The notes under the pieces were generated by a model that searched no databases, was not told where the DNA came from, and saw only the letters and a list, made by a program, of their open reading frames with translations. Below, in pieces: positions 11,237 through 35,557 of a stretch of DNA of 64,000 bases. Origin of the DNA: Monoglobaceae bacterium (GTDB taxonomy: Bacteria; Bacillota; Clostridia; Monoglobales; Monoglobaceae); assembly GCA_045120135.1 (NCBI GenBank), contig JBGVEN010000017.1, positions 12,278 to 76,277 of the forward strand. The letters run 5' to 3'. How positions within the stretch are numbered: position 1 is the first letter of the stretch; the number at the start of each line of letters is the position of its first letter. A program made the translations under genes and the position numbers.

Positions 11237-11242
11237 GATACA

Positions 11243-11258
11243 AATTGATACTAAAATA
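11243..11258 (+). repeat. 16-nt motif AATTGATACTAAAATA, copy 1, in the leader of the barnase gene
   Basis: Identical 16-mer at 12313-12328. The surrounding ~38 nt also share TGGATA and ATCAG blocks. Confidence 0.6.
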
Positions 11259-11376: not shown

Positions 11377-11961
11377 ATGGAATTTAATTTAGACCTAGAA
11401 ATAATAAAAATAAAAATGCAAATGTTATACGGAAAAAGATTCGATCCCGTAGTACAAGACAGTATTAAGTGGCATATGTGGAAGACAATAATAACTAACA
11501 CAACTTGTGCGGTTTGCTATGAAAAAAGCGGAACTATTTTCAATGAGGAGTATATGCTCGATGAATTTCCTCCATTGCATGAAAAATGTAGGTGCTTTAT
11601 TGTAAAAGCAAAGTCCATTTGTGCAGGAACAGCAACTATTGAGGGCTTATTAGGTGCTGATTACACAGTAAAAAATAGAAAAAAATTACCACAAAACTAC
11701 ATATCTAAAAAGGAAGCTAAAGCAAAAGGTTGGAAGTCATTACTTGGAAACTTGCGTATAGCTTTGCCGAAGGCAACAATTGGTGGTGATGTATATCAGA
11801 ATAAAGAGGGAAAACTACCACAAAAAGTAGGTAGAGTGTGGTATGAAGCGGATGTTAACTATTTGGGAGGATATAGGAATTCGCATCGTTTGATTTATTC
11901 AAATGATGGCTTGATATTTATTACATATGACCATTATCTTACATTTTATGAGATTATTTAA
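11377..11961 (+). CDS. Barnase-type ribonuclease toxin fused to the tail end of a phage MuF/SPP1-gp7-like domain
   Basis: The C-terminus YISKKEAKAKGW...GGDVYQNKEGKLPQKVGRVWYEADVNYLGGYRNSHRLIYSNDGLIFITYDHYLTFYEII aligns with barnase. Equivalents of K27, E73, R83, R87 and H102 are conserved. The N-terminus has the CxxC...HxxCRC end of MuF head-morphogenesis domains. Confidence 0.85.
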   Translation: MEFNLDLEIIKIKMQMLYGKRFDPVVQDSIKWHMWKTIITNTTCAVCYEKSGTIFNEEYMLDEFPPLHEKCRCFIVKAKSICAGTATIEGLLGADYTVKNRKKLPQNYISKKEAKAKGWKSLLGNLRIALPKATIGGDVYQNKEGKLPQKVGRVWYEADVNYLGGYRNSHRLIYSNDGLIFITYDHYLTFYEII

Positions 11962-11975
11962 AAGGAGTGAAAACA

Positions 11976-12275
11976 ATGGCGAAATACAAAATAAACCTGT
12001 CGGGGGCAAAGTCTGTATATGATATACATGAAAAAATACAAGAGGGCTTAAAATTTCCGGATTATTATGGAAAAAATCTTGATGCGTTATGGGATTGTCT
12101 TACCGATATGGACGCTCCTGTTGAAATCTATATATATGGAGCTGAGACGCTTGGAAAGGGAATGAGTGAACTTTTTACAGAGAGCATTATAAAAATATTT
12201 GATGAGGTAAAAGAATGGTTTGATGAAACCGGAGAAAAATTTGAATTCACGATATGTGAAGAAAAATATAATTAA
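11976..12275 (+). CDS. Barstar-family immunity protein
   Basis: FPDYYGKNLDALWDCLTD matches the barstar inhibitory helix (YYGENLDALWDCLTG). ATG at 11976 lies 8 nt after AGGAG, directly downstream of the barnase gene. Confidence 0.85.
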   Translation: MAKYKINLSGAKSVYDIHEKIQEGLKFPDYYGKNLDALWDCLTDMDAPVEIYIYGAETLGKGMSELFTESIIKIFDEVKEWFDETGEKFEFTICEEKYN

Positions 12276-12312
12276 GCTTATTAAAAAAATAATTTGGATA
12301 CAACTGCATCCG

Positions 12313-12328
12313 AATTGATACTAAAATA
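12313..12328 (+). repeat. 16-nt motif AATTGATACTAAAATA, copy 2, in the leader of the fic gene
   Basis: Identical to 11243-11258; lies 15 nt upstream of the fic start. Confidence 0.6.
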
Positions 12329-12342
12329 ATCAGGTGATTTAA

Positions 12343-13500
12343 ATGGAAATCAAAATATTTACAAAAATACTGAAAGATAAGTCCTTTGTTGATTACAAAA
12401 AAATGAAATATAAATATAGTGTGGAATTTGATGCATTTCTCAAAAACCTTGAGGAATTGTATTATAAGGAATTGCCTATTTTGGATTTTGACGACGAGAA
12501 TGTGGTTTTTATTGAAAATCATGCAAGGGTGAGCCAAAATACTGTAAAGCTGCTTTTGAGGGAGCAAAAACAAAATTACGGAATAAAGGCTGCAGAGGAA
12601 GAAATTATTGCAACATCGGCAATTGAAAGTATTGACTTCAGCCGTGACAGTGTGCGGAATATACTTAAAGGAATGGCGCCAAAGGATGAGAACGAAACTC
12701 GAATAATGGGACTTAAAAAGGGCCTCGAATTTATTGCAGACACGGACAATAAAATCAGTGAAGAAAACCTTTATAAGCTTTATATGATGACGGTGGGTGA
12801 TTTTCTAGAAAATCAGGATAGTTTGCCAAAAGGTAGCTTTTATAGGAATGATGCGGTTTATGTTGTGGGCGATAGTGTTGAGCATACAGGGCTTAGTGCG
12901 AAAAAAGTGCCGGAATTTATGAAAGCACTTATAGAATTTACAAATGCTGAGGATGACATAAACGAGCTTATAAAAGCGGCAATAATTCATTTTTATCTTG
13001 CATTTGTGCATCCGTATTTTGATGGCAACGGAAGAATGGCAAGGCTTTTACATTTATGGTTTTTGATTCAAAAGGGGTATCGGTCTGCCTTGTTTATTCC
13101 GTTTTCAAGCAGAATAGAAAAAAGCCGAAAGGCATATTATGATGCTTATATCCTTATTGAAGAGAACAAAAAGTATAGCGGCAAAATCGATGTTACTCCC
13201 TTTGTTTTGTATTTCATAGAAAATGTTTATGATAAAATGGGTGAGGGTAGTTCATCAACTGAAACCTTTGAGATATACGAAGGTGCATTAAAACAAGGCA
13301 AAATAACCGAAAAGGAAGCAAAGCTTTGGAAGTTTGTATTGTCGTATTACGGCACAGACGAATTTTCTACAAAACAGCTTGAGAAGGATTTTGGAAATGC
13401 AGCTTATGCCACCATTCGCAGTTTTGTTTTGAAATTTGAAGAGCTTGGGTTGCTGACTTCAACTAAATACGGAGCGAGAATTAAATACAGGATTTTATAA
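12343..13500 (+). CDS. Fic/DOC-family protein (probable AMPylase) with a C-terminal winged-helix-like region
   Basis: Canonical Fic motif HPYFDGNGRMARLL. Confidence 0.85.
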   Translation: MEIKIFTKILKDKSFVDYKKMKYKYSVEFDAFLKNLEELYYKELPILDFDDENVVFIENHARVSQNTVKLLLREQKQNYGIKAAEEEIIATSAIESIDFSRDSVRNILKGMAPKDENETRIMGLKKGLEFIADTDNKISEENLYKLYMMTVGDFLENQDSLPKGSFYRNDAVYVVGDSVEHTGLSAKKVPEFMKALIEFTNAEDDINELIKAAIIHFYLAFVHPYFDGNGRMARLLHLWFLIQKGYRSALFIPFSSRIEKSRKAYYDAYILIEENKKYSGKIDVTPFVLYFIENVYDKMGEGSSSTETFEIYEGALKQGKITEKEAKLWKFVLSYYGTDEFSTKQLEKDFGNAAYATIRSFVLKFEELGLLTSTKYGARIKYRIL

Positions 13501-13545
13501 TGCAATATAAAACAGGCTGCCTCAATAACGAGGCAGCCTGTTATG

Positions 13546-15207
13546 TTATGCGAGGGTTACATACAACACCAATTCCGTCATTGAGTCTATAAAGTCAAAA
13601 AAGTCCTTATCTTGGGATTTGATTTTGTCTTTTTCGCTTATAAACTTCAATAGTTTTTCTTCGGAAACATCGATATCAATAAAGCATTTTTTGTTGTTGG
13701 CTTTTCTAAGAACGGATGTTGGTATGCCTACATCTTCAATCTTTTTAGCAAGTTTTGTGGGTTTTGACAGCAATTCAATATTATCTGATCCCATAGTGGC
13801 AGCGTAGCTTTTTAACGCTTTGCCGAATTTTTTTGTTTCTATGTAATTGCCTTGTTCTTTGTCGCAGCAATCGCGAATAAAATTATGTATCAATTCGTCG
13901 AGTACGATTTCGTTATCCACATTCTGCTTTTCGCCGTGTATTATATGTAGACCATTTGCTGTTAAGCATAATTTTAGCCAGCCTATGTCTTCGGCGGTTA
14001 AAACTTTCAAGTCAAAATTTTCAATAGTGACGGTTTTGCAGGTTAAATTTTTGAAAAATTCATCCAGCTCCGTTTCATACTGAACAAGGGCAATCAAAGG
14101 ACTATACTCACCATTTGTATAAGGAATAAAGGGGTCTTCTTTTTCGGTTACCTTTCTTCCTTGCATAAGCTTTTTTACAGCGGAGTGGTTGATTTCTGAA
14201 AAATGCCTTTTGCTTACCATAACACTGTTTATTTGAAGAAGTGAATGGCTTGCATGGTCCAAGGTCAGACTTTCAATGAGCTTTTTCCCCTTTTTCTCAT
14301 AGATACTTGCAGAAGTTCTGTTATCGCAAAGTATTGATAACAGCTTTGCAAAATTTTGTTTCCCTTTACCGCATATATTCCATATGCATTTTGAGGATAA
14401 TTTTTCCACCAGCATTCTTGCAATAAGCTCGGAAATAAAGCTTAATGTATCAACTGAACCGCCTGTCATATCATGAAGAGCTTTCTTTATATTGTCTGAG
14501 GGCGCATGTGAGAAATATCCAAGACTAATGTATGAGTTGTATGATAATTCTTTTGTTGCATTTGAGTCGAATTTTGCAGTTCCCATAGCGGGGAGGTAGG
14601 ATAGTTTACCTTCGGCAAAATTAACCGAATATTCGTCAGCTTCAGTATCTGTTTGGGATTTACCCAATAGGCTTAAAAGCTCTTTTGCAAGGCTTGACTT
14701 TGCGGATTCACTTGCTACATAATGTCCTCTATTGTCCAAAACCAGGGATTCCATAAATTTATCAGTAAGAAGTTTTTGTCCAACATATATTCTTTTATCA
14801 TGGACGGATATGTTTTGTATATCGTCAAAAAACGGTAATAAAAATAAACCACACTGCCATTTGAAATTAAACAAAGCTTTGTAATATGGTGTGATTTCCA
14901 GTTGTGATAAATAAAGATACAGATTTTTGATTATACCTTCAATCAGGCCTTCTTGAAATGGAAGTCCCCCAAAGTATGCTTCGTGAAATCGTGACATGAT
15001 TTTGGTGGACATTTCCTCTGTGTCAATTTCAATATTTGTTCCCAAGCATCTTAGATTGTCACCCACCACATAAAAATATCTTTCGGGAGAATAAAGATAT
15101 GAATTCTGATTCCCGATATATTGATGCAGACAGTTTTGATAATTTGCAAGAGCATTTTTGATTGATATTCTGCGTGCTGTATCTAACATGTTTTCCTTTT
15201 GAAACAT
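13546..15207 (-). CDS. Hypothetical 553-aa protein; the C-terminal part loosely resembles phage/plasmid primase-helicase C-terminal regions, without an intact P-loop
   Basis: Long ORF convergent with fic. NICGKGKQNFAKLL occupies the place of a Walker A motif but is degenerate, and the tail NFIRDCCDKEQGNYIETKKFGKALKSYAA is reminiscent of P4/D5-type primase C-termini. The resemblance is weak. Confidence 0.3.
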   Translation of the reverse strand: MFQKENMLDTARRISIKNALANYQNCLHQYIGNQNSYLYSPERYFYVVGDNLRCLGTNIEIDTEEMSTKIMSRFHEAYFGGLPFQEGLIEGIIKNLYLYLSQLEITPYYKALFNFKWQCGLFLLPFFDDIQNISVHDKRIYVGQKLLTDKFMESLVLDNRGHYVASESAKSSLAKELLSLLGKSQTDTEADEYSVNFAEGKLSYLPAMGTAKFDSNATKELSYNSYISLGYFSHAPSDNIKKALHDMTGGSVDTLSFISELIARMLVEKLSSKCIWNICGKGKQNFAKLLSILCDNRTSASIYEKKGKKLIESLTLDHASHSLLQINSVMVSKRHFSEINHSAVKKLMQGRKVTEKEDPFIPYTNGEYSPLIALVQYETELDEFFKNLTCKTVTIENFDLKVLTAEDIGWLKLCLTANGLHIIHGEKQNVDNEIVLDELIHNFIRDCCDKEQGNYIETKKFGKALKSYAATMGSDNIELLSKPTKLAKKIEDVGIPTSVLRKANNKKCFIDIDVSEEKLLKFISEKDKIKSQDKDFFDFIDSMTELVLYVTLA

Positions 15208-15558
15208 ATAATCACCTTCCTTTTTGAGTATATCACATCCCTTGCCAAAAGTGTAGGAAAATTTGAAATATAGGAAAAATTTCTGTTTTCTATTGTAGAA
15301 TAGGCATAGATATATACAATATACTATTTAAAAAATATCCGTATATCTAGGAGTACTATAAGATATCATATATCACTTTCAAATAATGTGTAATGTTTTA
15401 CAATCACACTTACATATTATTAAAATGAAGGAGGTGATATATGTGGTTGTAACAAACACCTACATATCAAAAAACAAAAAAGACTACGAGCAAAAACGTA
15501 ATCTTATACATAGAAGATGCGTGCTGATACTTCGCTCAAGAAATGAGGGTAAGTAGTT

Positions 15559-17010
15559 ATGGACGCAATATACGCAAGACAGAGCCTTAATAAAAAAGAC
15601 AGCTTATCCATTGAAGGTCAAATTGACCTTTGCAAGAAACTTGCCGGAGAGGATGCGATTGTATTTAAGGACAAGGGTTTCTCCGGCAAGAACACAAAGA
15701 GACCTGCGTTTATGGAACTTATGGAGGCGGTTGAGGCAGGACAGGTGGAAAAGATTTATGTTTATCGCCTTGATCGATTCAGCCGCTCCATTTCGGATTT
15801 CAGCAGAATATGGGAGTTGCTTGAGAAGAATGGTACCCAGTTTCAGTCTGTTACCGAACAGTTTGATACATCAACGCCAATAGGAAGGGCGATGCTTAAT
15901 ATCGTTATGACCTTTGCGCAGCTTGAACGCGAGACAACGGCAGATCGTGTAAAGGATAATTATATACATCGTTTTGATTTGGGGGCGTGGCCGGGAGGCC
16001 CTGCACCCTATGGTTTTGACCTTAATAAAATAACAGATGCTTTTGGAAAGTCAGCATCTTCACTTTCAATAAATGCAGATGAAGCTGATGTAGTAAGGAG
16101 AATTTTTGAGCGGTATGCTGAAACCGGAACATCACTTCGCAGCGTCGCAAAAGAACTGATGGATGACAAAATCCATGGCCCAAAAAGAGAGGCATGGGAC
16201 AATGTGACCCTTTCAAGACTTTTGCACAGCCCCGTATACGTGAAAGCGAATGAGGATGTATATTGGCACTATATTTCCTTGGGACTTAATATTTCAAATG
16301 ACATATCAGCCTTCGATGGGATTCATGGATGCAATATTATGGGACAACGGGACAGGACAAGGAATAAGTATAATTCACTTGAAAACCAACGACTTGCCGT
16401 GGCGAACCATGAGGGATTTATAGATGCAAAGTTATGGCTTAATGTTCAGGAAAAGCTTTCTTCCAACAAGCAGATTTCTCTTGATAATGCCGGCAAATAC
16501 AGTTGGCTTACGGGGCTTTTAAAGTGTAAATGCTGTGGGTATGCGGTGAAAATAAATCACAGCAAGTCTGAAAATCGGATATATCTTATCTGTTCGGGCA
16601 AGTCAAATCTCAAGATATGCAACACAAAGATAAGTGTTGATATAAGAGAACTTGAAGCAACGGTTGAAAAGGAAATTGTAAAAGTTATAGATGAATGTTC
16701 TTTTGAAGATGCCGTAAACATGGATGCGGAAAGAGCAAGAGGAGTTCTTGATATAGAGCAAAGGATTGACCGCCTTGTAAATGCCTTGTCTGAGAGCAGT
16801 GAGGTGTCTGCCGCTTACATATCAAAGCAGATTGACAGACTTCACAAGGAACGGGAGAGTTTGCTGTCAGAAAAGGCACCAAAGCAAGGGGGAATTAAAA
16901 AGATAGATTTCCCCAAAGCGTCTTTTGAGGATAAAAAGCTTATAGCAGCCCAATTCATTGAAAAGATTTTGCTTGATGGCGAAAACGCAGAAATTATTTG
17001 GAAAATATAG
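15559..17010 (+). CDS. Large serine recombinase (LSR-1)
   Basis: 483 aa with the N-terminal resolvase catalytic domain (AIYARQSLNKKDSLSIEGQ, YVYRLDRFSRS), a recombinase domain, a Cys-rich zinc ribbon (CKCCGYAV...CSGK...C) and a coiled coil. Confidence 0.9.
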   Translation: MDAIYARQSLNKKDSLSIEGQIDLCKKLAGEDAIVFKDKGFSGKNTKRPAFMELMEAVEAGQVEKIYVYRLDRFSRSISDFSRIWELLEKNGTQFQSVTEQFDTSTPIGRAMLNIVMTFAQLERETTADRVKDNYIHRFDLGAWPGGPAPYGFDLNKITDAFGKSASSLSINADEADVVRRIFERYAETGTSLRSVAKELMDDKIHGPKREAWDNVTLSRLLHSPVYVKANEDVYWHYISLGLNISNDISAFDGIHGCNIMGQRDRTRNKYNSLENQRLAVANHEGFIDAKLWLNVQEKLSSNKQISLDNAGKYSWLTGLLKCKCCGYAVKINHSKSENRIYLICSGKSNLKICNTKISVDIRELEATVEKEIVKVIDECSFEDAVNMDAERARGVLDIEQRIDRLVNALSESSEVSAAYISKQIDRLHKERESLLSEKAPKQGGIKKIDFPKASFEDKKLIAAQFIEKILLDGENAEIIWKI

Positions 17011-17172
17011 CCTGATGATACTTAACGGTATCTGATGGCTTTATTTTTTATTCATTAACAAACGATATAACAATATAGTAAAATACAGGGCCCCGTGGGG
17101 AAGGATGTTGAATGCATTCTTCCCCGACTTGCGACCATAAATGGATAAATAATATATACAGGAGATGATAAA

Positions 17173-17661
17173 ATGGCAATATTAAAGATAGTAAACACTA
17201 AAGGTAAATACTATGATGAGTGTTCAAGGGAACAGGTTTTGGGATATATATTAAATCCTTATAAGACACCCAGTGGATATATTGGAAGCATAGAGATAAC
17301 AGGAGATAATTATGCTCAGGAAATGAATGATGTATCGGTAAGCTTTGGAAAGGTTGATGGAGTACAGCTGAGACATTTTATAATATCCTTTGAAAATTGG
17401 GAGGTAAAAGACCCAAAGATTGCGTATATGATAGGTCTTGATATAGCAAGATTCTTAGGTAGAGAATATCAGGCTGTGTTCAGTGTGCACGAAGATTCCG
17501 AGCAACTGCATATTCATTTGGTGATAAATTCTGTAAGTTTTATAGACGGACATAGGTACAGGGGGACAAGAGCAGAGTTTTATGGACTTAAAAATTATAT
17601 TAATGTGGTTATTGGCAGATTTGGTATTGCTCCGGTAAGGTATATATCAGATAAAGCATAA
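17173..17661 (+). CDS. Relaxase/mobilisation nuclease domain protein (short, domain only)
   Basis: HFIISFENWE ... YQAVFSVHEDSEQLHIHLVINSVSFIDGHRY matches the MobA/VirD2-type relaxase pattern with the HxH metal motif. Confidence 0.6.
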   Translation: MAILKIVNTKGKYYDECSREQVLGYILNPYKTPSGYIGSIEITGDNYAQEMNDVSVSFGKVDGVQLRHFIISFENWEVKDPKIAYMIGLDIARFLGREYQAVFSVHEDSEQLHIHLVINSVSFIDGHRYRGTRAEFYGLKNYINVVIGRFGIAPVRYISDKA

Positions 17662-17705
17662 TTTGTTTTTTACTTTCTTAACACAGAAATAAGGAGGTAT
17701 GCATT

Positions 17706-17888
17706 ATGCAATCAGAATATATCGAATTAATCACAATAGACGAGCTTTGTGAGCTTTTGATGATAGGTCGCACAACAGCATATAAGCTTTTGCAGTCACA
17801 TGAACTGAAAGCATTCAAAATAGGCAAGGTGTGGAAGATATCAAAAGCATCTGTGGAGGAGTACATAAAAATACGCAGTAACCTGTAG
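17706..17888 (+). CDS. Excisionase-family / MerR-like HTH DNA-binding protein
   Basis: 60 aa; ITIDELCELLMIGRTTAYKLLQSHELKAFKIGKVWKISKASVEEYI is the typical Xis-type HTH. Confidence 0.7.
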   Translation: MQSEYIELITIDELCELLMIGRTTAYKLLQSHELKAFKIGKVWKISKASVEEYIKIRSNL

Positions 17889-18012
17889 TGGGTTACTGCG
17901 TGTTGCGTTTATGCAATATTTCTCAAATTCACTTATATATTATCATTTTGTGTACATATACTGTGCATCCGATTTCAATCGGCAAATAGATAAAATATAG
18001 GAGGAAATTTAA

Positions 18013-19119
18013 GTGAAAGAAGAAAAATGCAGGTACTGCGGAAAGGTGTTAACGAAAGAGGAACAATGCGAATTTGATGGAAAAGTTATGTGCAAGTCTT
18101 GTCTTGAAGAAATGACATCAATTTGCGCACATTGCGGTGAAAGATTGTGGAACGATGAAAACAGCGGCTCGGACAATTTTGTATTATGTCAAAGATGTTA
18201 TGATAATCATTATACCACTTGCGAACGGTGCGGACACATAATACACTATGATGCTGCGCTGTATTTTGATGATGAGGATTATCCATATTGCAGCAGCTGT
18301 TATGATGTTTTGGCAAAAAATGAGATAATACATGACTATAACTATAAGCCGGAACCAGTATTTTATGGTAAGGACGATATGTATTTAGGGGCAGAACTTG
18401 AAATTGACCGTGGTGGCGAAAGTTCTGATAATGCACAGAGGATTCTTGACATTGCAAACTCTCAGTCAGAGCACATGTACATAAAGCACGACGGAAGCAT
18501 AGAGGATGGATTTGAAATGGTTACACATCCAATGGGACTTGAATATCACAAATCTGAAATGCCCTGGCAAAAGATATTTGATAAAGCGCTTGACATGGGT
18601 TACCGCTCCCATAAAACTTCTACCTGCGGATTACATATTCATGTAAGCCGTGATGCATTAGGTCCTGACCATGATGCACAGGAAGAAACAATAGCAAGAA
18701 TAGTGTATTTTGTAGAAGCTCATTGGAATGAGCTTCTTAAATTTTCCAGACGGACAGAGGCAAATATAATGCGTTGGGCATCAAGATACGGTATCGCAGA
18801 GGATACAAAAGCTACATATGACAAAGCCAAGAAAGGCAGCTTTAACAGATATGTATGCGTGAACCTGCAAAACTACAATACGGTAGAATTCAGAATTTTC
18901 AGAGGCACACTCAAATATGAAACCTTTATGGCAACACTTCAGCTTGTGCATGAGATATGCGATAAAGCAATATCCGCAACAGATAAAGACTTTGAATCAA
19001 TGTGCTGGAGTGATTTTGTAAAAGGTATAAGTAAAGAGGACAAGCCTGAGCTTATCAATTACCTTAAATCAAAAGAACTCTATATCAATGAGCCAATAAC
19101 AGAAACGGAGGAGGTATAG
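18013..19119 (+). CDS. Amidoligase-family (glutamine synthetase-like COOH-NH2 ligase) protein with an N-terminal multi-CxxC zinc-ribbon region
   Basis: About 100 aa with eight CxxC pairs, then GAELEIDRGG...KHDGSIEDGFEMVTHP...CGLHIHVS, which is typical of the Amidoligase_2 family. Confidence 0.65.
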   Translation: MKEEKCRYCGKVLTKEEQCEFDGKVMCKSCLEEMTSICAHCGERLWNDENSGSDNFVLCQRCYDNHYTTCERCGHIIHYDAALYFDDEDYPYCSSCYDVLAKNEIIHDYNYKPEPVFYGKDDMYLGAELEIDRGGESSDNAQRILDIANSQSEHMYIKHDGSIEDGFEMVTHPMGLEYHKSEMPWQKIFDKALDMGYRSHKTSTCGLHIHVSRDALGPDHDAQEETIARIVYFVEAHWNELLKFSRRTEANIMRWASRYGIAEDTKATYDKAKKGSFNRYVCVNLQNYNTVEFRIFRGTLKYETFMATLQLVHEICDKAISATDKDFESMCWSDFVKGISKEDKPELINYLKSKELYINEPITETEEV

Positions 19120-19120
19120 T

Positions 19121-20035
19121 ATGTGTTGTTTGTTTGGAATATATAATTACAGCGGAAGTGAAATAAAAGGACTTGCAAAACTTACAAATTTTCTTGCAAG
19201 AGAAGCAACGACAAGGGGTATGGATGCAACAGGTATAGCATATAACCACAAAGGTAATTTGCTTATACATAAAGAACCCAAATCTGCATACAGCATTACA
19301 TTCAGACACCCTGAAGATGTAACGGCAATAATGGGACATACAAGGCATACAACCCAGGGTAATGAAAAGCATAACTTCAATAATCATCCTTTCCCGGGAA
19401 CTTGCAAAAATTTGAAATTTGCCCTTGCACATAACGGAATACTTATAAATGATAAATCGTTAAGACGGAATTTAAAACTGCCAAAGACCAAAATAGAAAC
19501 CGATAGTTTTATTGCGGTACAAATTCTTGAACACCAAAAGCAACTCAATGATGAAAGCATAAAGTACATGGCGGAAAAGGTGGATGGTAGCTTTTCATTT
19601 ACTATTCTTGATTCAAGTGACACCTTATGGTTTGTAAAAGGCGATAGTCCGCTGTCTATCATCCATTTCCCAAAGCAAAAGGTATATGTTTATGCATCAA
19701 CGGACGAGATTTTATACAAAGCACTTGTGGGAACGGAGTTCTTTAAGGAAATCAAAAACAGTGAATTTGAAGAGATAGACATACAAGAAGGTCAGATAAT
19801 GAATATATTACCTGACGGCACAATTGTAACGAGCAGATTTAATTACATAAACGACTACTATGGTGACTATTGTTGGTGGCGATACGGAAGCGGCATGTTA
19901 GGTGAGAGTACATACCTTGACGATTTAAAAAACATAGCTAAAGGTTATGGATATGATTCTGAAACAATAGATGAACTTTTAAATTCCGGTTTTACCACAG
20001 ATGAGATTGAGGAATATATTTATTGCTGTGAATAA
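19121..20035 (+). CDS. Class-II (Ntn) glutamine amidotransferase-like protein
   Basis: Starts MCCLFGIYNY (N-terminal nucleophile Cys). HTRHTTQG and NNHPF blocks are present. It starts 1 nt after the amidoligase stop. Confidence 0.7.
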   Translation: MCCLFGIYNYSGSEIKGLAKLTNFLAREATTRGMDATGIAYNHKGNLLIHKEPKSAYSITFRHPEDVTAIMGHTRHTTQGNEKHNFNNHPFPGTCKNLKFALAHNGILINDKSLRRNLKLPKTKIETDSFIAVQILEHQKQLNDESIKYMAEKVDGSFSFTILDSSDTLWFVKGDSPLSIIHFPKQKVYVYASTDEILYKALVGTEFFKEIKNSEFEEIDIQEGQIMNILPDGTIVTSRFNYINDYYGDYCWWRYGSGMLGESTYLDDLKNIAKGYGYDSETIDELLNSGFTTDEIEEYIYCCE

Positions 20036-20110
20036 ATGGAATTTTATAAGGAAGAATGCATTTTACTATACATTGCAAAAAGTATATAATCTAGACAGAT
20101 TTTTCTGGAG

Positions 20111-20371
20111 GTGATATTGATTGGCGTAAAAAATATCAATGCTTTAAATGAAGTGTATAGGGAAATGGTGGACCTCGTTGGCTATGACAATACCATGCTT
20201 ATTTATACACACTTTAAAGGGCAGCAGGTGACCTTTCCAATAAAGCTTTATAATTCGGAATACATAAAGAAACTACTAAAGGAGCAGTATGACGGAACAA
20301 ATGTTAAGGCTTTAGCGCGAAGGTACAATTATTCAGAACGGTGGATAAAAGAATTACTAAAGAAAGGGTAG
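20111..20371 (+). CDS. Mor-family / CD3324-like small transcriptional activator
   Basis: 86 aa; the C-terminal ALARRYNYSERWIKELLKK HTH and the upstream FKGQQVTFPIKL resemble Mor-like activators. Confidence 0.45.
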   Translation: MILIGVKNINALNEVYREMVDLVGYDNTMLIYTHFKGQQVTFPIKLYNSEYIKKLLKEQYDGTNVKALARRYNYSERWIKELLKKG

Positions 20372-20380
20372 AATTTAAAA

Positions 20381-20959
20381 ATGAAAGCATCAAAAAGAAT
20401 TATTATAGCAATAGTAGTTTCATTGATTGTATTTTTGCTTTATCAATGCACAAAGCAGGAGGAAAATGTAGAGCCTGCAAAAAGTCCGGCTGAAATTGTG
20501 ACATCAGCGGAATCTGTTTGTGATGCATTAAAGGGATTGGAAAAAGCAGGTGTTGAATTTGAAATGACAGAAACCGCTGAAAGGATGTTTAAGGAGCATC
20601 CGGGGTACTATGACGGAAGTGATTCTGAAAATTCCGTAATGGACAGAATGGATTTTGCGCTGGCTTATGATGAGGTTGCAAATAACCTTGAAGAAAATGG
20701 CGACAAACTTATCCTTCTCCCAAATGTTTCGGTAATTTCAATAAGCAGAAGCGAAACTGAAAATGGAATGACAATGGTTGAACTTCTGGATGATGATTGG
20801 AATTATTATTTGATGGTATCGGCAGATAGATTCGAGAATGTAGAAGAGGGCGAATACATTGGCGGCTTTTATACCCCTGCAGGTAAGATGACCTTTGTCA
20901 ATAAGCAGGGCGAGGTAAGCAAGGGTATAGTCGGAGCAACGGTGTTGCTTGGAGAATAA
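20381..20959 (+). CDS. Hypothetical membrane-anchored or lipoprotein-like protein
   Basis: N-terminal hydrophobic helix ending LYQC; acidic extracytoplasmic region; no recognisable motif. Confidence 0.4.
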   Translation: MKASKRIIIAIVVSLIVFLLYQCTKQEENVEPAKSPAEIVTSAESVCDALKGLEKAGVEFEMTETAERMFKEHPGYYDGSDSENSVMDRMDFALAYDEVANNLEENGDKLILLPNVSVISISRSETENGMTMVELLDDDWNYYLMVSADRFENVEEGEYIGGFYTPAGKMTFVNKQGEVSKGIVGATVLLGE

Positions 20960-20977
20960 CGAAGGAGGGAATTTGCA

Positions 20978-21148
20978 ATGAGTATCAAAATATGGTGCAT
21001 AATAGGAATGATTGTATCGGCGGTTGTGGGTTTTCTCAGAACAAGAGGTCGTGAGGGTGCAGGAAAAACTGCAATAATAATATTACATACAATAGCGTTT
21101 GTTATATTTCTCTTGGGAGCAATAGTATTAAACAATCAGGGAATGTAA
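20978..21148 (+). CDS. Small two-TM membrane protein (56 aa)
   Basis: ATG lies 8 nt after GAAGGAGGG. Two hydrophobic helices are separated by RTRGREGAGK. It is below the ORF-track length cut-off. Confidence 0.4.
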   Translation: MSIKIWCIIGMIVSAVVGFLRTRGREGAGKTAIIILHTIAFVIFLLGAIVLNNQGM

Positions 21149-21276
21149 TGAATAATAAGAACCAATAGGGTATACCCTGATGGGATGCTGGGGATGCGTT
21201 TCAATAAAGTCAAATTCGACTTTTTGGAACGCTCCTTTTATTTTTGTCACCCTATTGGGACGAAGGGAGGATTTTT

Positions 21277-21837
21277 ATGCGTATTGGTTATATAAGAGTA
21301 AGTACCGCAGAGCAAAACACAGCACGGCAGGAGGCTTTGATGCAGGAACTTGGTGTGGATGAGATATACATTGACAAAACAAGCGGAAAGAATAAGGAAA
21401 GACCGGAGCTTCAAAAGATGATTGATTATGTTCGCAGGGGTGATACGGTAATTGTGGCGTCAATCAGCCGTTTTGCAAGAAATACCAAAGATTTACTTGA
21501 GCTTATAGAAAAACTTTCTGAAAAGGAAGTTGAGTTTGTGTCAAAAAAAGAGGCAATAGATACATCAACGCCGACCGGGAAGTTCATGCTGACGGTTTTT
21601 GGTGCTGTTGCGGAGCTTGAAAGGGAATATATATTGTCACGGCAAAAAGAGGGAATAGAGATTGCTAAAGCGGACGGCAAATATAAAGGCAGAAAGCCCA
21701 AAGAGCTTTCTGCGGATTTTGAATTTGTAATAAAGAAATGGCAAAATGGTGAGATAACTGCAGTCAAAGCAATGAAAAGGCTTGGAGTAAGCAAAAGCAC
21801 ATTCTATAGATTGGTTAAGAAAAAAACGACCCCGTAA
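21277..21837 (+). CDS. Small serine recombinase (resolvase/invertase, Hin/Pin-like)
   Basis: MRIGYIRVSTAEQNTARQ catalytic N-terminus, VASISRFARN, and a C-terminal HTH (LGVSKSTFYRLVKK). ATG at 21277 follows GGGAGGA. Confidence 0.9.
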   Translation: MRIGYIRVSTAEQNTARQEALMQELGVDEIYIDKTSGKNKERPELQKMIDYVRRGDTVIVASISRFARNTKDLLELIEKLSEKEVEFVSKKEAIDTSTPTGKFMLTVFGAVAELEREYILSRQKEGIEIAKADGKYKGRKPKELSADFEFVIKKWQNGEITAVKAMKRLGVSKSTFYRLVKKKTTP

Positions 21838-23062: not shown

Positions 23063-23539
23063 ATGAGAGTACAGCTTTTACAGTGTAAAATGAAGGAAAA
23101 AGATTTTGACCCACAAATGCCGATTCAGGCGGTGGGAAAGGATGAAAATGGCGAAGAATATGATATTGAAATTATTGATGAGAAATTTGCTAAAGTATCA
23201 AATGTAATAGACAATTTTTTTGCAGGAGAAGTAGCCAAAGACAGTAAACGACTTGTTATATCTTTTGATAAGGAAGAAGTTTCAAAATCGTTGATTGCAA
23301 GAAGAATTGGAGAAAGTATTGCAGCATATATTGATATGCAGTACAAAACATCAACTTCAGTAAAGAGAAAGGACGATTATTTTGAAATAAATATTGGGAT
23401 ATATGCACGAAGTGTGATTGATGGTCAAACTTTTTCTGACGAAGACTTGGATAAGTTAAGAGAATATATTAATTATACGGTAATGGAATATAGAGTTGCC
23501 CCGATAACTTATATTGAAGAAGGGTATTTAGAGTATTAA
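23063..23539 (+). CDS. Hypothetical protein resembling a relaxase domain that lacks the HxH motif
   Basis: Size and layout are similar to 17173-17661 (LVISFDKEE vs HFIISFENWE; FEINIGIYARSVIDGQTF vs LHIHLVINSVSFIDGHRY), but the histidines are replaced. Confidence 0.35.
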   Translation: MRVQLLQCKMKEKDFDPQMPIQAVGKDENGEEYDIEIIDEKFAKVSNVIDNFFAGEVAKDSKRLVISFDKEEVSKSLIARRIGESIAAYIDMQYKTSTSVKRKDDYFEINIGIYARSVIDGQTFSDEDLDKLREYINYTVMEYRVAPITYIEEGYLEY

Positions 23540-26181: not shown

Positions 26182-27066
26182 ATGAAAAAGAAAATAGTAA
26201 TTTTAGTATGTGTGATATCTATGGTTGCGACAGTGTGTGTTTTTGCTGCGTTACATATATCGGAAGAAGTAAAGTTCAACAAAATGAGCAAGTTTGACCA
26301 GATGGTTTACGTTATGAACGAAACCATAGAAAATAATTTTGATTTCAATAATGTGCTGATAAACTATAAATATTTTGAAGACGGCTTAAATGTCTCAGCT
26401 GATAATATGGATTATTTAGCGGACCTTATAATTGACGGATATAATGGACAGGATGTGTTAAAATGTGCGTCATTTTGGCTTGATACAAACGAGAGTGTAT
26501 CAATTGTAAAAGATATGTGTGATTGGAAGAAAAAAAACTCAGACCAAGTAGATGGCACAACCGATTTTTGGATAGAAAATGCTTTTAATGCCGTTACAAA
26601 TGATAAATGTGGTGTTTTAACCTTTGAGGATATTGAAAAGTATGAAAAGATGGGTATATCGGATGAGGATATTATGATAGCAAATCGCCTTTGCCGCAAA
26701 GGAGTGTATACCATACAGGAAATCCTTGCAAAACTTGAATCAGGGATTTCAATGGTAGATATAGCTATTGATATTGAAGGCAATGCCCCCATGACGGCAC
26801 ATACAGATGTTGAGGAGGTGCAAGTGTATTCAATTCGTGAAGCAAAATATCCTAAGGCAGAGGCGGACATGCTTTTTGAAAGCAGACAATTGGCAATGCT
26901 GAAAAAAACACCCAATCAAATATATTATGACACGACAGATGTTGAAACGGATATAGAGACAGAACTCGATCAGATAGTTGGAATGATTTCGGACTCAATA
27001 ATTGATGAGCTAAAGTCGGGAAATTATTTAAGAAGAAATGGAACAGAGGTGGAAGAAAATGAATAA
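26182..27066 (+). CDS. Hypothetical membrane-anchored protein (294 aa) between the repeat protein and the RHS gene
   Basis: N-terminal TM/signal helix. No recognisable motif. Its stop overlaps the RHS start region. Confidence 0.45.
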   Translation: MKKKIVILVCVISMVATVCVFAALHISEEVKFNKMSKFDQMVYVMNETIENNFDFNNVLINYKYFEDGLNVSADNMDYLADLIIDGYNGQDVLKCASFWLDTNESVSIVKDMCDWKKKNSDQVDGTTDFWIENAFNAVTNDKCGVLTFEDIEKYEKMGISDEDIMIANRLCRKGVYTIQEILAKLESGISMVDIAIDIEGNAPMTAHTDVEEVQVYSIREAKYPKAEADMLFESRQLAMLKKTPNQIYYDTTDVETDIETELDQIVGMISDSIIDELKSGNYLRRNGTEVEENE

Positions 27067-30000
27067 AATAAAATATTGCGTGCTTAAATCTTCACAAAAC
27101 AAGGCTGCTTTAATATTTGTGTCAATATTTGTCACTCTTGCAGCAATTTTATTACCTAATGTATGTGTTCACGCAAGCACAAGTGACCATCTCTATGCTA
27201 AAAGCCATATTGAGGCAAATCGTGACTTGTATGGTGAAAAATATACACCGGCACAAAAGCTTAGTAGCGGCGAAATAGACCATAGTACAGGGGAAGTAAG
27301 AGTAGATGAGGTTGATATAAGCCTGCCAGGGAAAAATGGTCTTGACCTAAATATACATAGAATATATGGCAGTCAAGAGCCGCAATACAGACCTAAATAT
27401 ATAAAGGATGACTATTATGTGGAGTATGTGACAGAAAAGGCATATACATATACCGCAATGGATGGCAGTGGCACTCAGCTTTATGTATCCTTTGAAAAAG
27501 AGGAAGATATGGTGGACTCGTTTTATACAACTCCAAGAGCTCTTTCGGGTAACAGAAACGAGGATGTGTTTGGAGTAGAATATGAAGAGTATACTTCCAT
27601 AAAATCCTCAACTGGCGAAATACTTCTTGAACGCGACAAAACCAATGGGGTGAAAAGAATATATTTATCCTCACGAACAGGTATGGACACCGTAGGCAAA
27701 AAGGAAGGAAATGTATATATAAATTCAGCAAGATCACATTGGAAGCTTGTAATGCCGTATGTTTCGCGCACAACCTGTATTTCTGAAAATACAAGAAGAG
27801 TATATTATTATCGATTTAGTAACGAAAACGGAGAAATTTACGATCTAAGATTTTATGTGACGACAGACGATTCTACCCCTCATATAGTGACAAAGTTTTA
27901 TGGCAGCGCATTCAGCGTGGAATTGGCAGAAGATTCAGAGCTTAAATCATATACACTTATTCTGACCGATAAGACGGGTAAGATATATAAATTTAATCTC
28001 GGCACATTTGCTGAAATGGATTCGCAAACGGTTGTGACAGATTGTACCGTTAGTGACAGGTTTGGAAATACAATAATATATAACGGCAATGAAATCACAG
28101 ACAGTTATGGCAGAAAACTGCGTATAACTGCAAACGGGATTGAACTTTATAACGGCAACAACTATAAGTATATAGTAAAATATGGGATAAGTGAAATATA
28201 TGACCAGGACAGAGACCCATACGGAAAACTTACAATATTTACAAAACATAAACTTACTGTCTCGCGCAGTACTTCTTCCCTTGATAGCCCAAATGAAAGT
28301 TTTGAGGAAACAATATATATAACTCAGGCAAAGGAAACAGACTGCTCGATATCCAAGTATGATCATGTTCCTGTCTATTTACTAAGAGAGGTAGTTCATC
28401 CTCAGGGGCTTAAAGTGATATACGATTATGAAACAAAGTGCAATGAGGAAAAAACTCCGATTTCAAGTTATAATGGCACAATAAAGAAGTACTATGTCCC
28501 GAGGGTTGCATCAAGGACAGAATATATAAAAACAAGCGATGATGTATATACTAGGAAAAACCATAGTAGCTACAGTTACAACACATACACTGTATCATTT
28601 TTGTTTGATGACAAAAAATCAGTAGATGAATTTGTTTATATAGGCGGTGTAGAGTACAAAATAATAACTCGCAGATATGATGATTTTGGCAGAATATTAA
28701 GGATAATTGAAAGTGACGGCACAGACACAAAAGATGAAGAATATCTTTATGAGTATAGTGAAAGTGACAACAGAATAACATCATTGGAGACACTAGATTA
28801 TCCGATAATCAGACAGAAACCCATTAAGGTAATTAAAACTACAGTAAACGGTGTCTTGACCGATGCTGTGATGACAAACTATACAAGGGACCGCAAGCCC
28901 ACACTTGTGCAAAAAGGATTACAGAAAACAACATATACATATGACGATACATACGGATTCTTAATAGAGAGCACGCAAACATCAGACTTTGACCGTTCAA
29001 TCAAGACTGTGGGAACAAAAACCAAGGACGGAAAAAACATAGCTAAAACCGAAATCTTTGATGTTGTTGGCGACGCCGAAACCCTGCAGGGCGTGACCGA
29101 ATATACCTACAATGCAGATGGTACGATGGCAAGTAAAACGGTATGGCAAACCTTGAACGGTGATACTATACAGACTGTCTATACATATAATTACAGCCTG
29201 TTTACAAATCTGCAGGGTGGGGAGCACAGCGTAACTTCAACTATCACTACAACAGACGCATCGGGAAATATATACACCGAAACTACAGCTATTGAATACG
29301 ACCTTTTGGGTAATGTAATAAAAGAAACCTTTGCAGACGGCACAGCCACATCCTATAAATATGACCTTATGAGGAGAGTGACTGAAGAGTTTTATCCCGA
29401 TGGGACAAAAAACAGTATAGCATATAGCAACAATTATCAGGGAAGCACCGTTTCTGTTACCCGCCCTGATGGCAGTGTTTTGACTTATCAGTATGACCCC
29501 AATGGGAATTATCTGAGTGCAAGTCTGGACGAAATGCTTTTGATTTCAAACACTTACGATGCCCTTAACCGCAAAATAAAAACAACCTCATACAATGACG
29601 ATGATACCGCTCTGGTTGAAAGATACAGTTATGACGCCCTTGATAGAGTTACGGCTCAAACAACAGCTGGCGAAACTGTAAACTATATGTTTGATGGAAC
29701 CGAGAATGTTTTTAATGTTAAAAATAACTCTTCGTATATAAGTGGTAGCACCGATTTAAATGGTCAGTATGTGGCAGCCCTAATTATTACAAACTCAACT
29801 ACTAGATCCTCTGTGTCATGGTCTGCAAGCGTGGATGTAATCGTAGATGACGAAAAAGTATGTGATGTGGGAGTGTTTTTTGACACTATAGAATATGCTG
29901 TGATAGATTTGCGTGGCAAAAATACCCTTGAGTTTGATGGTAGAATGAACGGGACAATTTGTGTCCGACTTATAAAGCTCGAAGACCTTGGTACAGGCAC

Positions 30001-33116: not shown

Positions 33117-34127
33117 TTTGGGGACGTACATTTTTGGGAATATTGGGGACGGGGAATATTGGGGACGTGCCTGATTTTGCACATTTTAATTGACTAATCA
33201 AAACAAATATGGTATAATTCGGTAAAGGGAAGTGATAAAGGTGAGTAGACCGCCACGAGTTCTCAGCGAAACCGGATTATACCATATTATTTTTAGAGGC
33301 CTTAATCGACAGAATTTATTTGAAGAAGACGAAGACTATATAAAACTGCTTGAAATAATAAATGACGTAAAAAATATATTTGAAATACAGATATACGCTT
33401 ATTGTCTAATGACAAATCACGTACACTTGTTTTTAAGAGAAAAGGAGTCGGGAGATATTAAGACAATAATGCATAAGTTGCTGACTCGGTATGTCATGTG
33501 GTACAACCGAAAATATCAGCGTAGTGGAAGCTTGATAGGAAATCGTTATAAGAGCGAGCCTATAGAAGACGAAACATATTATCTCACTTTGATGAGGTAT
33601 ATACATCAGAATCCTGTGAAAGCAGGTATGGTTGATAAACCGGAAGAGTATATCTGGAGTAGTTATAATGATTACATAAACTTAAAAAATGAATTAACAG
33701 ATATAGAATTTGGTTTATCGATTTTGTCAGGGAATGAAGAGCAGGCATTAAAAGAATTCAAAGAATTTCATGAAACCATGGAAGATACTGATTTTTCAAT
33801 ATCAAACACAAAAAAACTTACGGACGAACAATTAAAACGAAGAATTATAAAAATAACTGGCGGAATTAGACCGGATGAAATAGCACTAAGAGCAAAGGCG
33901 GACAGAGACTATATAATTACATTGTTAAGGAATGAAGGGTTTACGATAGGACAATTAGAAAGAGTCACGGGAATATCACGAGGTATTATAACAAGGGCAA
34001 ACGTGCAAAAATAGGCACGTCCCCAATATTAATATTCAAGTTTAAAGGGACAGTTCGACCGAACTGTCCCTTTTGACTTATAGTGTTAGTATGTGCCAAA
34101 AAATGTACGTCCCCAAATGGCTCATTT
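33117..34127. mobile_element. RayT/IS200-like Y1 transposase unit bounded by nested inverted repeats
   Basis: Outer inverted repeat: tttggggacgtacatttttgg (33117-33138) vs ccaaaaaatgtacgtccccaaa (34106-34127). Inner inverted repeat: aatattggggacgtgcct (33155-33172) vs aggcacgtccccaatatt (34023-34040). There is an extra direct copy of aatattggggacg. Confidence 0.6.
33232..34014 (+). CDS. IS200/RayT-like HUH (Y1) transposase with a C-terminal HTH
   Basis: LYHIIFRGLNRQNLF, HUH motif NHVHLFL, YIHQNPVKAG with the catalytic Tyr region, and the C-terminal HTH GFTIGQLERVTGISRGIITRA. Confidence 0.75.
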   Translation: MIKVSRPPRVLSETGLYHIIFRGLNRQNLFEEDEDYIKLLEIINDVKNIFEIQIYAYCLMTNHVHLFLREKESGDIKTIMHKLLTRYVMWYNRKYQRSGSLIGNRYKSEPIEDETYYLTLMRYIHQNPVKAGMVDKPEEYIWSSYNDYINLKNELTDIEFGLSILSGNEEQALKEFKEFHETMEDTDFSISNTKKLTDEQLKRRIIKITGGIRPDEIALRAKADRDYIITLLRNEGFTIGQLERVTGISRGIITRANVQK

Positions 34128-34814
34128 GATATTCAATCGCTGTCTATTTCTGTTTTCATTCAACATCAACCATTCTTGAATAAGATTATAATCTTCATCT
34201 TCTATCAACTTTAGTAAGCTTTGCTTTTCAGAAATCTTTTTCTTCATTTTTTGAATATATTCTTGGGTGATTTTTTCTCCTAACATCTCCCTGTTTCTTT
34301 CAAAAACATATTCACTATGCGCGATTATATTTATAACATGTTGTTTACCATAAAGATACTGTTTATTTTTTAAAGCCATAATCATCTTTGGGTATTCATT
34401 ATAAAAAACAGCTCCATCAACATCAAATACTTTTAATGCTTCGTATGCGTCAATACAATTTGTAGCTTTTTGAAAGAATGGCATTAAATATTTTTCCATA
34501 TAATAGAGCATCTGCCCTATGCAAATATTTATACTATTTTCATCTTTAGTTATATAGGAAAACCAATCTGCGCTGTTTTCAAATCTTTTTAAATGTGTTG
34601 CTCCACACGTTGATTTATCTATTTTATACTCTTGTGATAATGGTAAAACACAAAACTCTACAGTTGCATCGGTTTGGTAATGTGAACGGTGAAGACAGAA
34701 ACTTTGAAAAACATCATTGACAACCCTATAATGATAATTACGATATGTTTTAAATCCATATTCATTGAATTCTTCTTTGCATCGTTTTTTGTATTCTTTC
34801 AAAAAATAATCCAT
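34122..34814 (-). CDS. Putative immunity protein of the orphan toxin cassette (DUF4304-like)
   Basis: 230 aa. ATG lies 8 nt after the toxin stop with an overlapping AGGAG. The N-terminus EFNEYGFKTYRNYHYRVVNDVFQSFCL resembles DUF4304-type immunity proteins. The family call is weak. Confidence 0.5.
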   Translation of the reverse strand: MDYFLKEYKKRCKEEFNEYGFKTYRNYHYRVVNDVFQSFCLHRSHYQTDATVEFCVLPLSQEYKIDKSTCGATHLKRFENSADWFSYITKDENSINICIGQMLYYMEKYLMPFFQKATNCIDAYEALKVFDVDGAVFYNEYPKMIMALKNKQYLYGKQHVINIIAHSEYVFERNREMLGEKITQEYIQKMKKKISEKQSLLKLIEDEDYNLIQEWLMLNENRNRQRLNIK

Positions 34815-35527: not shown

Positions 35528-35557
35528 TGAGTATCATAACGTGTGCTGTAATTGATT

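Follow-up and report, generated by a model that had tools for sequence, protein, structure and literature searches.

What do a predicted carboxylate–amine ligase and a predicted amide-cleaving partner do together on a mobile genetic element? The question is raised by two adjacent genes in a 64,000-nucleotide stretch of DNA from a Monoglobaceae bacterium (assembly GCA_045120135.1, contig JBGVEN010000017.1; hereafter the window, in whose numbering all coordinates are given). The first gene, at 18013–19119 on the forward strand, opens with GTG and encodes a 368-residue amidoligase, in which a zinc-finger array is followed by a carboxylate–amine ligase domain resembling glutamine synthetase (GS) and GCS2. 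The second, at 19121–20035 on the same strand, encodes a stand-alone, 304-residue class-II amidotransferase-like protein of the N-terminal nucleophile (Ntn) type with Cys2 as the nucleophile. An original prediction, made from the letters alone, had placed both genes here and named their families, Amidoligase_2 and class-II amidotransferase, and searches with Pfam, NCBIfam and Foldseek bear this out. We show that, judged by their conserved residues, the two genes encode an intact GS/GCS2-type ligase and an intact Cys-Ntn glutamine or γ-glutamyl amidohydrolase, that they are obligately linked and that the pair is found almost only on phages, plasmids and integrative elements. We tentatively favour a mechanism in which the ligase, targeted by its zinc fingers, would make a γ-glutamyl-type amide bond on a macromolecule, with the stand-alone Ntn enzyme priming or trimming that bond.

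The Amidoligase_2 profile (PF12224) matches residues 154–313 of the amidoligase at 31.9 bits against a cut-off of 22 (E = 1.6e-7). Its full length is matched by phrog_16683 (E = 1.1e-91), and phrog_2443, annotated ‘amidoligase enzyme’, also matches (2.5e-13); TIGR02050 is a weak match in NCBIfam, and Pfam gave no match to the Pup-ligase profile. The strings GAELEIDRGG, HDGSI and GLHIHVS, quoted in the original prediction, are all found in the protein. Invariant residues were called from an alignment of 33 amidoligase homologues (alignment A1), which in the catalytic half leaves E128, E130, D132, K158, D160, S162, E168, H200 and H208 unchanged, together with H210, R213, R246, R247, N284, N287, E292 and R294. 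A sequence search of the PDB with the amidoligase returned no significant match, and a fold search was therefore needed. With the AlphaFold model (pLDDT, the predicted local distance difference test, 86.6; pTM, the predicted template-modelling score, 0.73), the best PDB fold matches found by Foldseek for the catalytic part were YbdK (1r8g, E = 1.8e-4, probability 1.00) and, more weakly, the depupylase Dop (E of about 7e-3). Invariant columns, the Pfam match and the YbdK/GCS2 fold match together delimit a catalytic core at residues ~120–340 (18370–19032, forward strand). YbdK/GCS2 (1r8g, 1tt4) is the best solved match to this domain, at only 14% identity and a template-modelling (TM) score of 0.33. 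The chemistry of that family is ATP- and Mg-dependent and proceeds through an acyl-phosphate. Unlike the amidoligase here, YbdK is not linked to mobile elements, and it lacks both a zinc-finger array and a partner of the amidotransferase type.

The zinc-finger array occupies residues 6–96 (18028–18300, forward strand), as delineated by a regular-expression count, the alignment and Foldseek. Eight CxxC pairs had been claimed for it; we count six (C6/9, C27/30, C38/41, C59/62, C70/73 and C93/96) and one unpaired cysteine, C19. The spacings of 17/7/17/7/19 resolve into three CxxC-x17/19-CxxC modules separated by 7-residue linkers, and all twelve zinc-finger cysteines are invariant or nearly so among the aligned homologues. 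This part of the model (pLDDT 85–96) resembles the tandem LIM domains of PINCH1, FHL2 and LMO2 (Foldseek probability 0.97–0.99), which are likewise tandem, cysteine-rich double zinc modules. The LIM consensus is CX2C-X16-23-(H/C)X2C-X2-CX2C-X16-21-CX2(C/H/D), in which the linker has 2 residues against 7 in the amidoligase array, and the ligands of the array are all cysteines; the array, moreover, belongs to a bacterial and phage protein and is fused to an enzyme, unlike eukaryotic LIM domains. Pfam finds no LIM match (PF00412) in the amidoligase at E ≤ 0.01, although some homologues do match that profile. As modelled, the array is LIM-like at the level of the fold and not a member of the LIM family.

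Nor is this N-terminus unusual, as had been supposed: close homologues almost all have the array, as does phrog_16683. Among the best 150 cluster representatives, the number of CxxC pairs before the catalytic domain was most often 8 (37 representatives), 6 (27) or 10 (22), followed by 12 (11), with a maximum of 16. Because the counts differ among representatives, the array is a variable-copy tandem module, with a family range of 6–16 CxxC pairs, or 3 to 8 units. Searched alone against the protein database for other enzymes fused to the module, residues 1–105 returned a single fragment, and across 169 fetched loci a hidden Markov model (HMM) of the domain matched amidoligase open reading frames (ORFs) only. 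Ten long family representatives contained no amidotransferase–ligase fusion and instead bear extra zinc fingers, unknown extensions or leucine-rich repeats, the last being of the BspA type and C-terminal in two long representatives.

The partner protein begins MCCLFG, again as predicted, with a cysteine directly after the initiator methionine. Pfam assigns it to GATase_6 (1.9e-10), GATase_7 (7.5e-8) and GATase_4 (1.3e-4), and C2, R32, G33, D35, R75, N105, G106 and D128 are invariant among 34 sequences. In alignment, C2, R32, R75, N105-G106 and D128 pair with PurF Cys1, Arg26, Arg73, Asn101-Gly102 and Asp127. The AlphaFold model (pLDDT 85.4) comprises an Ntn domain at about residues 2–240, a disordered linker (255–262) and a family-specific three-helix C-terminal extension (262–302). 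Foldseek places PurF first (1gph, E = 1.2e-13, TM 0.63) and also finds GlmS and GFAT, which confirms the four-layer Ntn fold. The glutaminase domains of PurF and GlmS are thus the best matches in both sequence and structure, with all catalytic residues kept; they are fused to a synthase, whereas the amidotransferase here has no phosphoribosyltransferase or isomerase domain and carries the three-helix tail. The NCBIfam matches span model positions 24–225 of about 600, the glutaminase domain only, and neither Pfam, NCBIfam nor the model reveals a fused synthase (acceptor) domain in the 304 residues, the C-terminus being a 40-residue helical tail. The protein is accordingly not a canonical amidotransferase. 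It is not a housekeeping enzyme either, because the equivalog models glmS, purF and asnB score 58–66 bits against cut-offs of 350–418.

The two genes nearly touch. In the junction (19107–19123, forward strand), GGAGGAGG lies at 19107–19114 within the end of the amidoligase gene, whose TAG (19117–19119) is followed by one base and then by the amidotransferase ATG (19121). Most related loci have an equally tight junction. This layout, together with GGAGGAGG, would fit translational coupling, as the original prediction held. The amidoligase itself is preceded by a ribosome-binding site, AGGAGG (17999–18004, forward strand), 8 nt 5′ of its GTG.

To see how general the arrangement is, the family was followed across sequence collections. 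Full-length homologues number more than 3,900 for the amidoligase, nearly all of those listed being about 368 residues long with 97–100% query coverage, and more than 5,200 for the amidotransferase, which puts the pair far beyond chance. A profile search of 1.84 billion cluster representatives (clustered at 50% identity) returned 14,185 clusters at E ≤ 1e-3, of which 4,137 reach E ≤ 1e-30. The family extends over Clostridia, actinophages and proteobacterial phages. In a scan of one genome per species, at least 594 stretches encode relatives, and the 80 best loci, which we followed, are all from Clostridia (Oscillospiraceae, Ruminococcus and relatives), mostly metagenome-assembled genomes from the animal gut.

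The amidotransferase lies directly 3′ of the amidoligase in about 73 of these 80 species-level loci. Across all 88 loci examined it is adjacent in 79, with 2 more reaching the contig end, and adjacency persists where the amidotransferase is only 39–45% identical. At least 493 viral contigs in IMG/VR encode relatives of 28–55% identity, and at least 90% of 68 ORFs directly downstream, on contigs with relatives of 28–50% identity, share the Cys...R...N signature; 36 of the 68 match GATase_4 and 20 match GATase_6. Partners on the more distant viral contigs escaped an HMM of near amidotransferase homologues and were recovered by scanning the downstream ORFs with Pfam. The pair corresponds to gp105/gp106 of mycobacteriophage Marvin and its cluster, where gp105 aligns from residue 38 and thus includes zinc-finger modules. 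It also occurs on a linear plasmid of Mycobacteroides abscessus and, in a T7-like podovirus, between the integrase and the RNA polymerase, with the 304-residue gene after the amidoligase annotated as hypothetical. Within the zinc-finger subfamily the partner found is always of the amidotransferase type, and such a partner is missing beside the nearest relative that lacks zinc fingers, which lies on a C. difficile phage-plasmid. The two genes are closely linked, and have been since ancient times. The original prediction, which had the pair travelling on phages and integrative elements, is borne out by a census that places it on phages, plasmids and integrative elements with its partner adjacent.

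Some loci carry rearranged copies. In L002 (1379–3016) the amidoligase is joined at about codon 346 to the equivalent of window position 23046 and the amidotransferase is lost; L072 (2241–7528) contains an inverted duplication of the pair; and L055 (53–982) has an in-frame fusion of the amidoligase, up to residue 319, with the tail of the amidotransferase.

How might two such enzymes work together? In the mechanism that we tentatively prefer, the amidoligase would act as an ATP-dependent carboxylate–amine ligase through an acyl-phosphate intermediate. Its LIM-like array would hold a macromolecular substrate, probably a protein, on which the ligase would form a γ-glutamyl-type (isopeptide or amide) bond. 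The Cys-Ntn enzyme would recognize a glutamine or γ-glutamyl moiety and hydrolyse its amide bond, either priming the donor by deamidation (Gln to Glu) or trimming or reversing the linkage. We infer each element of this scheme, from the chemistry and the division of labour to the macromolecular target and the benefit to the element.

Several observations lead us to prefer ligation followed or preceded by processing. The partner stands alone, with no synthase domain, and keeps every residue that binds glutamine or a γ-glutamyl group. To our knowledge, the split amidotransferases characterized so far use class-I subunits, whereas the characterized stand-alone class-II-like proteins, EgtC and Dug3, are γ-glutamyl amidohydrolases. 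The nearest solved ligases act on glutamyl γ-carboxylates, and the ligase bears, beyond a small-molecule pocket, modules of a protein-binding type, the LIM-like array and, in two long representatives, leucine-rich repeats. Sister Amidoligase_2 genes offer a further argument, because in Tn6164 (Orf22/23), in C. clostridioforme prophages and in LUZ24-like phages the same downstream slot is filled by an AIG2/γ-glutamyl cyclotransferase. A cyclotransferase cleaves γ-glutamyl amides and cannot supply ammonia, so this alternation favours a processing role for the partner; γ-glutamyl amide cleavage is the only activity that the two alternative partners have in common.

Other points weigh against the scheme. 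Neither a substrate, a product nor an interaction has been observed; the TM-score between the amidoligase and YbdK is low (0.33), the assignment leaning on the Foldseek probability and Pfam; and the cyclotransferase alternation is seen in sister subfamilies that lack zinc fingers. The variable zinc-finger array could bind nucleic acid instead of protein. The conserved residues of the partner would equally fit a true, ammonia-donating glutaminase, and because the same residues serve both chemistries, sequence alone cannot choose between them. The best structural matches of the partner are the glutaminase domains of PurF and GlmS, which are real amidotransferases, and near-overlapping genes and a conserved C-terminal extension are what one might also expect of a stoichiometric complex with an ammonia tunnel.

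These last points lead to the main alternative, a possible if somewhat less probable chemistry, in which the pair would be a split glutamine-dependent amidotransferase: the ligase would phosphorylate a carboxylate and the Ntn subunit would pass it ammonia from free glutamine, converting carboxylate to carboxamide. The substrate might be the D-iso-Glu or diaminopimelate carboxylate of peptidoglycan precursors in the cytoplasm, as for MurT/GatD or AsnB/LtsA; amidation there would alter the cell wall and might prevent superinfection or the action of lysins. Invariance of all the glutaminase residues and the closeness of the PurF and GlmS folds are in keeping with such a complex, as are the one-base junction conserved across loci and the conserved three-helix extension, which could dock on the ligase. 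Neither protein has a signal peptide, and the ligase is rich in cysteine; both are therefore cytoplasmic, a location in line with action on precursors, and related phage clusters are called ‘peptidoglycan modification modules’ in the literature.

MurT/GatD offers a precedent, that of a ligase and a separate amidotransferase acting on peptidoglycan. In this system, as in AsnB/LtsA, an ATP-dependent ligase or synthetase is coupled to a glutamine amidotransferase, and a stem-peptide carboxylate becomes amidated. MurT and GatD are, as here, two proteins, and they are co-transcribed, but MurT has the Mur-ligase fold and GatD is class-I. AsnB and LtsA are single fused proteins, and neither they nor MurT/GatD lie on a mobile element. 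We know of no characterized two-polypeptide amidotransferase with a class-II subunit, and no amidotransferase–ligase fusion appeared among the 10 long members examined. The cyclotransferase that sister subfamilies swap in is incapable of supplying ammonia, and tandem modules of a protein-binding type would be unexpected for a small soluble precursor.

The preferred mechanism follows the same logic as pupylation, EgtA/EgtC and Dug3. The pupylation enzymes PafA (the ligase) and Dop (the deamidase and depupylase) share the GS-like fold, and in that system deamidation or amide hydrolysis is paired with ligation of a glutamyl γ-carboxylate to a protein amine. By analogy, the pair could be a mobile-element protein-conjugation system, in which the array would select a host protein, the ligase would tag it and the Ntn enzyme would either prime the donor or take the tag off again, a reading that we regard as unlikely. 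Both pupylation enzymes have the ligase fold, whereas the hydrolase here would be of the Ntn amidotransferase type, and among the neighbours of the pair there is no gene for a Pup-like tag and no proteasome context. In such a conjugation system, the tag would be a glutamyl group or short peptide joined through an isopeptide bond, the target might be, for example, an immune or transcription component, and phages and integrative elements across several bacterial phyla would be reprogramming or disarming their hosts in this way.

A ligase of GS or GCS type is also paired with an amidotransferase-like γ-glutamyl-X hydrolase in EgtA/EgtC, Dug2–Dug3 and PuuA/PuuD, and EgtC and Dug3 are, like the amidotransferase here, stand-alone and class-II-like. 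On that precedent, and because one paper places the pair among auxiliary metabolic genes, the island might simply carry ordinary or auxiliary metabolism, such as γ-glutamylation-dependent amine catabolism or synthesis of a glutathione-like thiol, pathways that pairs of the PuuA/PuuD and EgtA/EgtC types do run. The known examples, however, are chromosomal small-molecule pathways with more enzymes between the two steps, whereas the window pair has no further pathway genes and its ligase bears macromolecule-binding modules, a zinc-finger array being atypical for a metabolic ligase. The profile searches proposed in the original prediction assign neither gene to a housekeeping equivalog, those models scoring far under their cut-offs. 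The neighbours are recombinases, Xis, relaxase, Mor and DUF960 genes, not transporters or pathway enzymes, and many matches lie at or near contig ends, as expected of repeated mobile DNA. Contradicted by the neighbourhood census, ordinary metabolism is highly improbable and was rejected.

The surroundings of the pair bear on what it might do for its carrier. It lies in a low-GC island of about 27 kb (~11.3–38.5 kb; 31–39% GC against 41–48% in the flanks), bordered by housekeeping genes, with YebC to its left and a polysaccharide deacetylase, malic enzyme and UxaC to its right. Upstream of the pair, all on the forward strand, are a large serine recombinase (15559–17010; 483 residues with Resolvase, Recombinase and Zn_ribbon_recom domains), a mini-relaxase (17173–17661; 162 residues, MobA/VirD2 nuclease domain only, PF03432 8.1e-20) and an Xis-like HTH_17 gene (17706–17888; 60 residues, PF12728 6.3e-15, TIGR01764 1.2e-13). 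Downstream on the same strand are a Mor-family transcription activator (20111–20371; 86 residues, PF08765 3.9e-8) and a small serine recombinase of the resolvase/invertase type (21244–21837; 197 residues, PF00239 1e-45). Pfam and NCBIfam thereby confirm the Xis-like, Mor-like and large serine recombinase neighbours named in the original prediction. A terminator-like hairpin of 11–12 bp (17873–17901) at the 3′ end of the Xis-like gene separates it from the amidoligase and dominates the fold of 17860–18015 (z-score −5.8); no consensus promoter was found between this hairpin and 18013. A second large serine recombinase (35558–37123, reverse strand) lies farther along the island, which appears to be composite. 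No convincing flanking direct repeats marking the element ends were found. Further island genes encode surface proteins, an RHS toxin, an IS200-type transposase and an IrrE-like peptidase.

In the closest relative, L001 (91% identical), the common segment runs exactly from 12283 to 21823, starting at the Fic gene and stopping where the small resolvase gene ends, and the cargo diverges beyond 21823. The pair, lying inside this shared segment, is therefore conserved backbone and not cargo. Among 72 Clostridial genome loci whose neighbours were tallied, the commonest are DUF960 immediately upstream (36 ORFs), HTH_17 (17) and Tn916-Xis (8); about half of the loci have a gene with a resolvase domain in first or second position after the amidotransferase (38 ORFs), and Mor follows the amidotransferase in 5. 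DUF960, amidoligase, amidotransferase and small resolvase form a Clostridial backbone module. The DUF960 gene encodes about 95 residues on the same strand directly upstream of the amidoligase in L008, L022, L026, L028, L085 and others; the window has none next to its pair. In L085 the order is DUF960, the pair, a resolvase, a 405-residue protein, a D5_N primase, a large serine recombinase and then host genes. As DUF960 is a component of the staphylococcal cassette chromosome (SCC) ccr gene complex, the related Clostridial islands appear SCC-like, and beside the pair relatives have DUF960 together with a D5_N-type primase-helicase and a large serine recombinase. All three are present in L085, whereas in the window only the recombinase is recognizable, with neither DUF960 nor a recognizable helicase; SCC elements, for their part, lack the amidoligase pair.

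The position between an Xis-like gene and a Mor-like activator, in a supposed early or establishment region of a large serine recombinase element, is what the original prediction took to suit an anti-restriction or anti-defence function, in which the module, on entry or induction, would inactivate or mask a host immune component or signalling molecule. This is a biological role, compatible with either chemistry and suggested by location only, and we consider it doubtful. Beyond the backbone position and the near-restriction of the pair to mobile DNA, it draws on the placement of the genes in regions that are non-structural and for the most part unannotated: ahead of the gene for RNA polymerase in the T7-like podovirus, and among WhiB and unannotated small proteins on viral contigs, where no virion structural genes adjoin the pair and a single DNA-packaging match (GP3_package) was seen. 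The DUF960 genes that relatives adjoin are also suggestive, since DUF960 neighbours a SAUGI-domain protein in staphylococcal SCC. SAUGI is a uracil-DNA-glycosylase inhibitor. The proposed early or establishment-region placement is read from the neighbours; neither transcription nor the polarity of transfer enters into it. Genes that follow a relaxase may be the last to enter the recipient: with an origin of transfer (oriT) upstream of the mini-relaxase, as in F-like arrangements, the pair would enter late, not first. No host defence system co-occurs consistently, and PADLOC, which covers defence systems only, gave no match to the pair. Literature searches found nothing joining amidotransferase, anti-defence and phage, and papers on plasmid leading regions make no mention of amidoligases.

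The same neighbourhood makes a DNA- or nucleotide-hypermodification role very unlikely. On that account, a side chain would be added to, or amidated on, a modified base, and the DNA of the element would thereby resist nucleases. The literature reports Pfam amidoligase and amidotransferase domains co-occurring with thymidine-hypermodification genes on some viral metagenome contigs, and the variable tandem zinc-finger array could bind nucleic acid. Against the DNA-modification function raised in the original prediction, however, nothing close by would supply a modifiable base: the Pfam-scanned island genes include no hydroxymethylase, 5-HMUDK kinase, aGPT-Pplase or TET/JBP enzyme, and none is seen among the common neighbours at the 72 genome loci or the viral loci. 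Canonical DNA, moreover, has no carboxylate for a GS-type ligase, and an integrated element replicates along with the host chromosome.

Where, then, does this copy stand among known systems? Iyer, Abhiman, Burroughs and Aravind (Mol Biosyst, 2009) reportedly predicted phage and mobile-element pairs of Amidoligase_2 with a class-II amidotransferase (or AIG2/GGCT). The amidoligase systems of phages and mobile elements (Marvin gp105/gp106, MEP401/402 of OM43 phages and those of LUZ24-like phages) share the families, gene order, tight linkage and mobile location of the pair. Compared with the full LUZ24-type cluster, the window holds the minimal two-gene form, on a serine-recombinase island of gut Clostridia; the accessory ATP-grasp, COOH-NH2 ligase and cyclotransferase genes of that cluster were not found among the Pfam-scanned island genes. 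Full-text literature searches found no experimental characterization of the pair, in agreement with the original prediction that no substrate or role had been reported. Papers annotate the genes, repeating the 2009 prediction of cell-wall modification or secondary-metabolite synthesis or noting the co-occurrence with thymidine hypermodification; according to a 2023 paper the functions ‘remain to be explored’, and as late as 2025 papers do no more than restate the 2009 prediction. The pair is a further member of this predicted, biochemically uncharacterized system, and the copy is ordinary for its family.

As a whole the family is very large, shows deep conservation on mobile DNA and lends itself to experiment. 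A known substrate would give thousands of genes on phages and mobile elements an annotation, and might bring to light a new covalent modification used when mobile elements and hosts are in conflict. The window offers useful handles: a compact, well-modelled two-gene version in which the mutations that should abolish catalysis are clear (C2A, and E128A/E130A), a separable zinc-finger domain that can serve as bait, and a conserved Clostridial backbone context (DUF960, pair, resolvase).

Other features of the island deserve mention. The end of the small resolvase gene is the exact point at which homology to L001 stops and variable cargo starts, and the resolvase may mediate cargo exchange or inversion. 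A 553-residue protein with no Pfam match (13546–15207, reverse strand) accompanies the large serine recombinase, is 85–86% identical in L001 and L011 and could be the replication protein of the element. ORF calling in L001 gives only a 79-residue relaxase fragment as the equivalent of the mini-relaxase. The protein of a 158-residue ORF at 23063–23539 and the mini-relaxase both give weak tblastn matches (26–28% identity) to overlapping regions of L002 and L003, making the ORF a possible distant mini-relaxase paralogue as judged by sequence.

At the left edge of the segment shared with L001, a Fic-domain protein (12343–13500) matches the PADLOC SoFic defence model (1.2e-36). Beside it, a barnase/barstar pair (11377–11961 and 11967–12275) occupies a cassette of about 1 kb that L001, although collinear elsewhere, does not have; direct repeats of 21 nt (11238–11258 and 12308–12328; 90% identical) bound the cassette. 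The RHS-repeat toxin gene (27038–32788; 1,916 residues) contains a region, 31914–32016, with an inverted copy at 35439–35541 (103 nt, 94% identical), just upstream of a 213-residue ORF (34823–35464, reverse strand) and a DUF4304 gene (34122–34814, reverse strand). This looks like an inverted, orphan toxin-tip and immunity cassette, which inversion could swap in, and it adjoins the second large serine recombinase. Between the toxin gene and this cassette lies the IS200-type Y1 transposase gene (33232–34014), with inverted repeats of 27–32 nt at 33117–33186 and 33999–34117.

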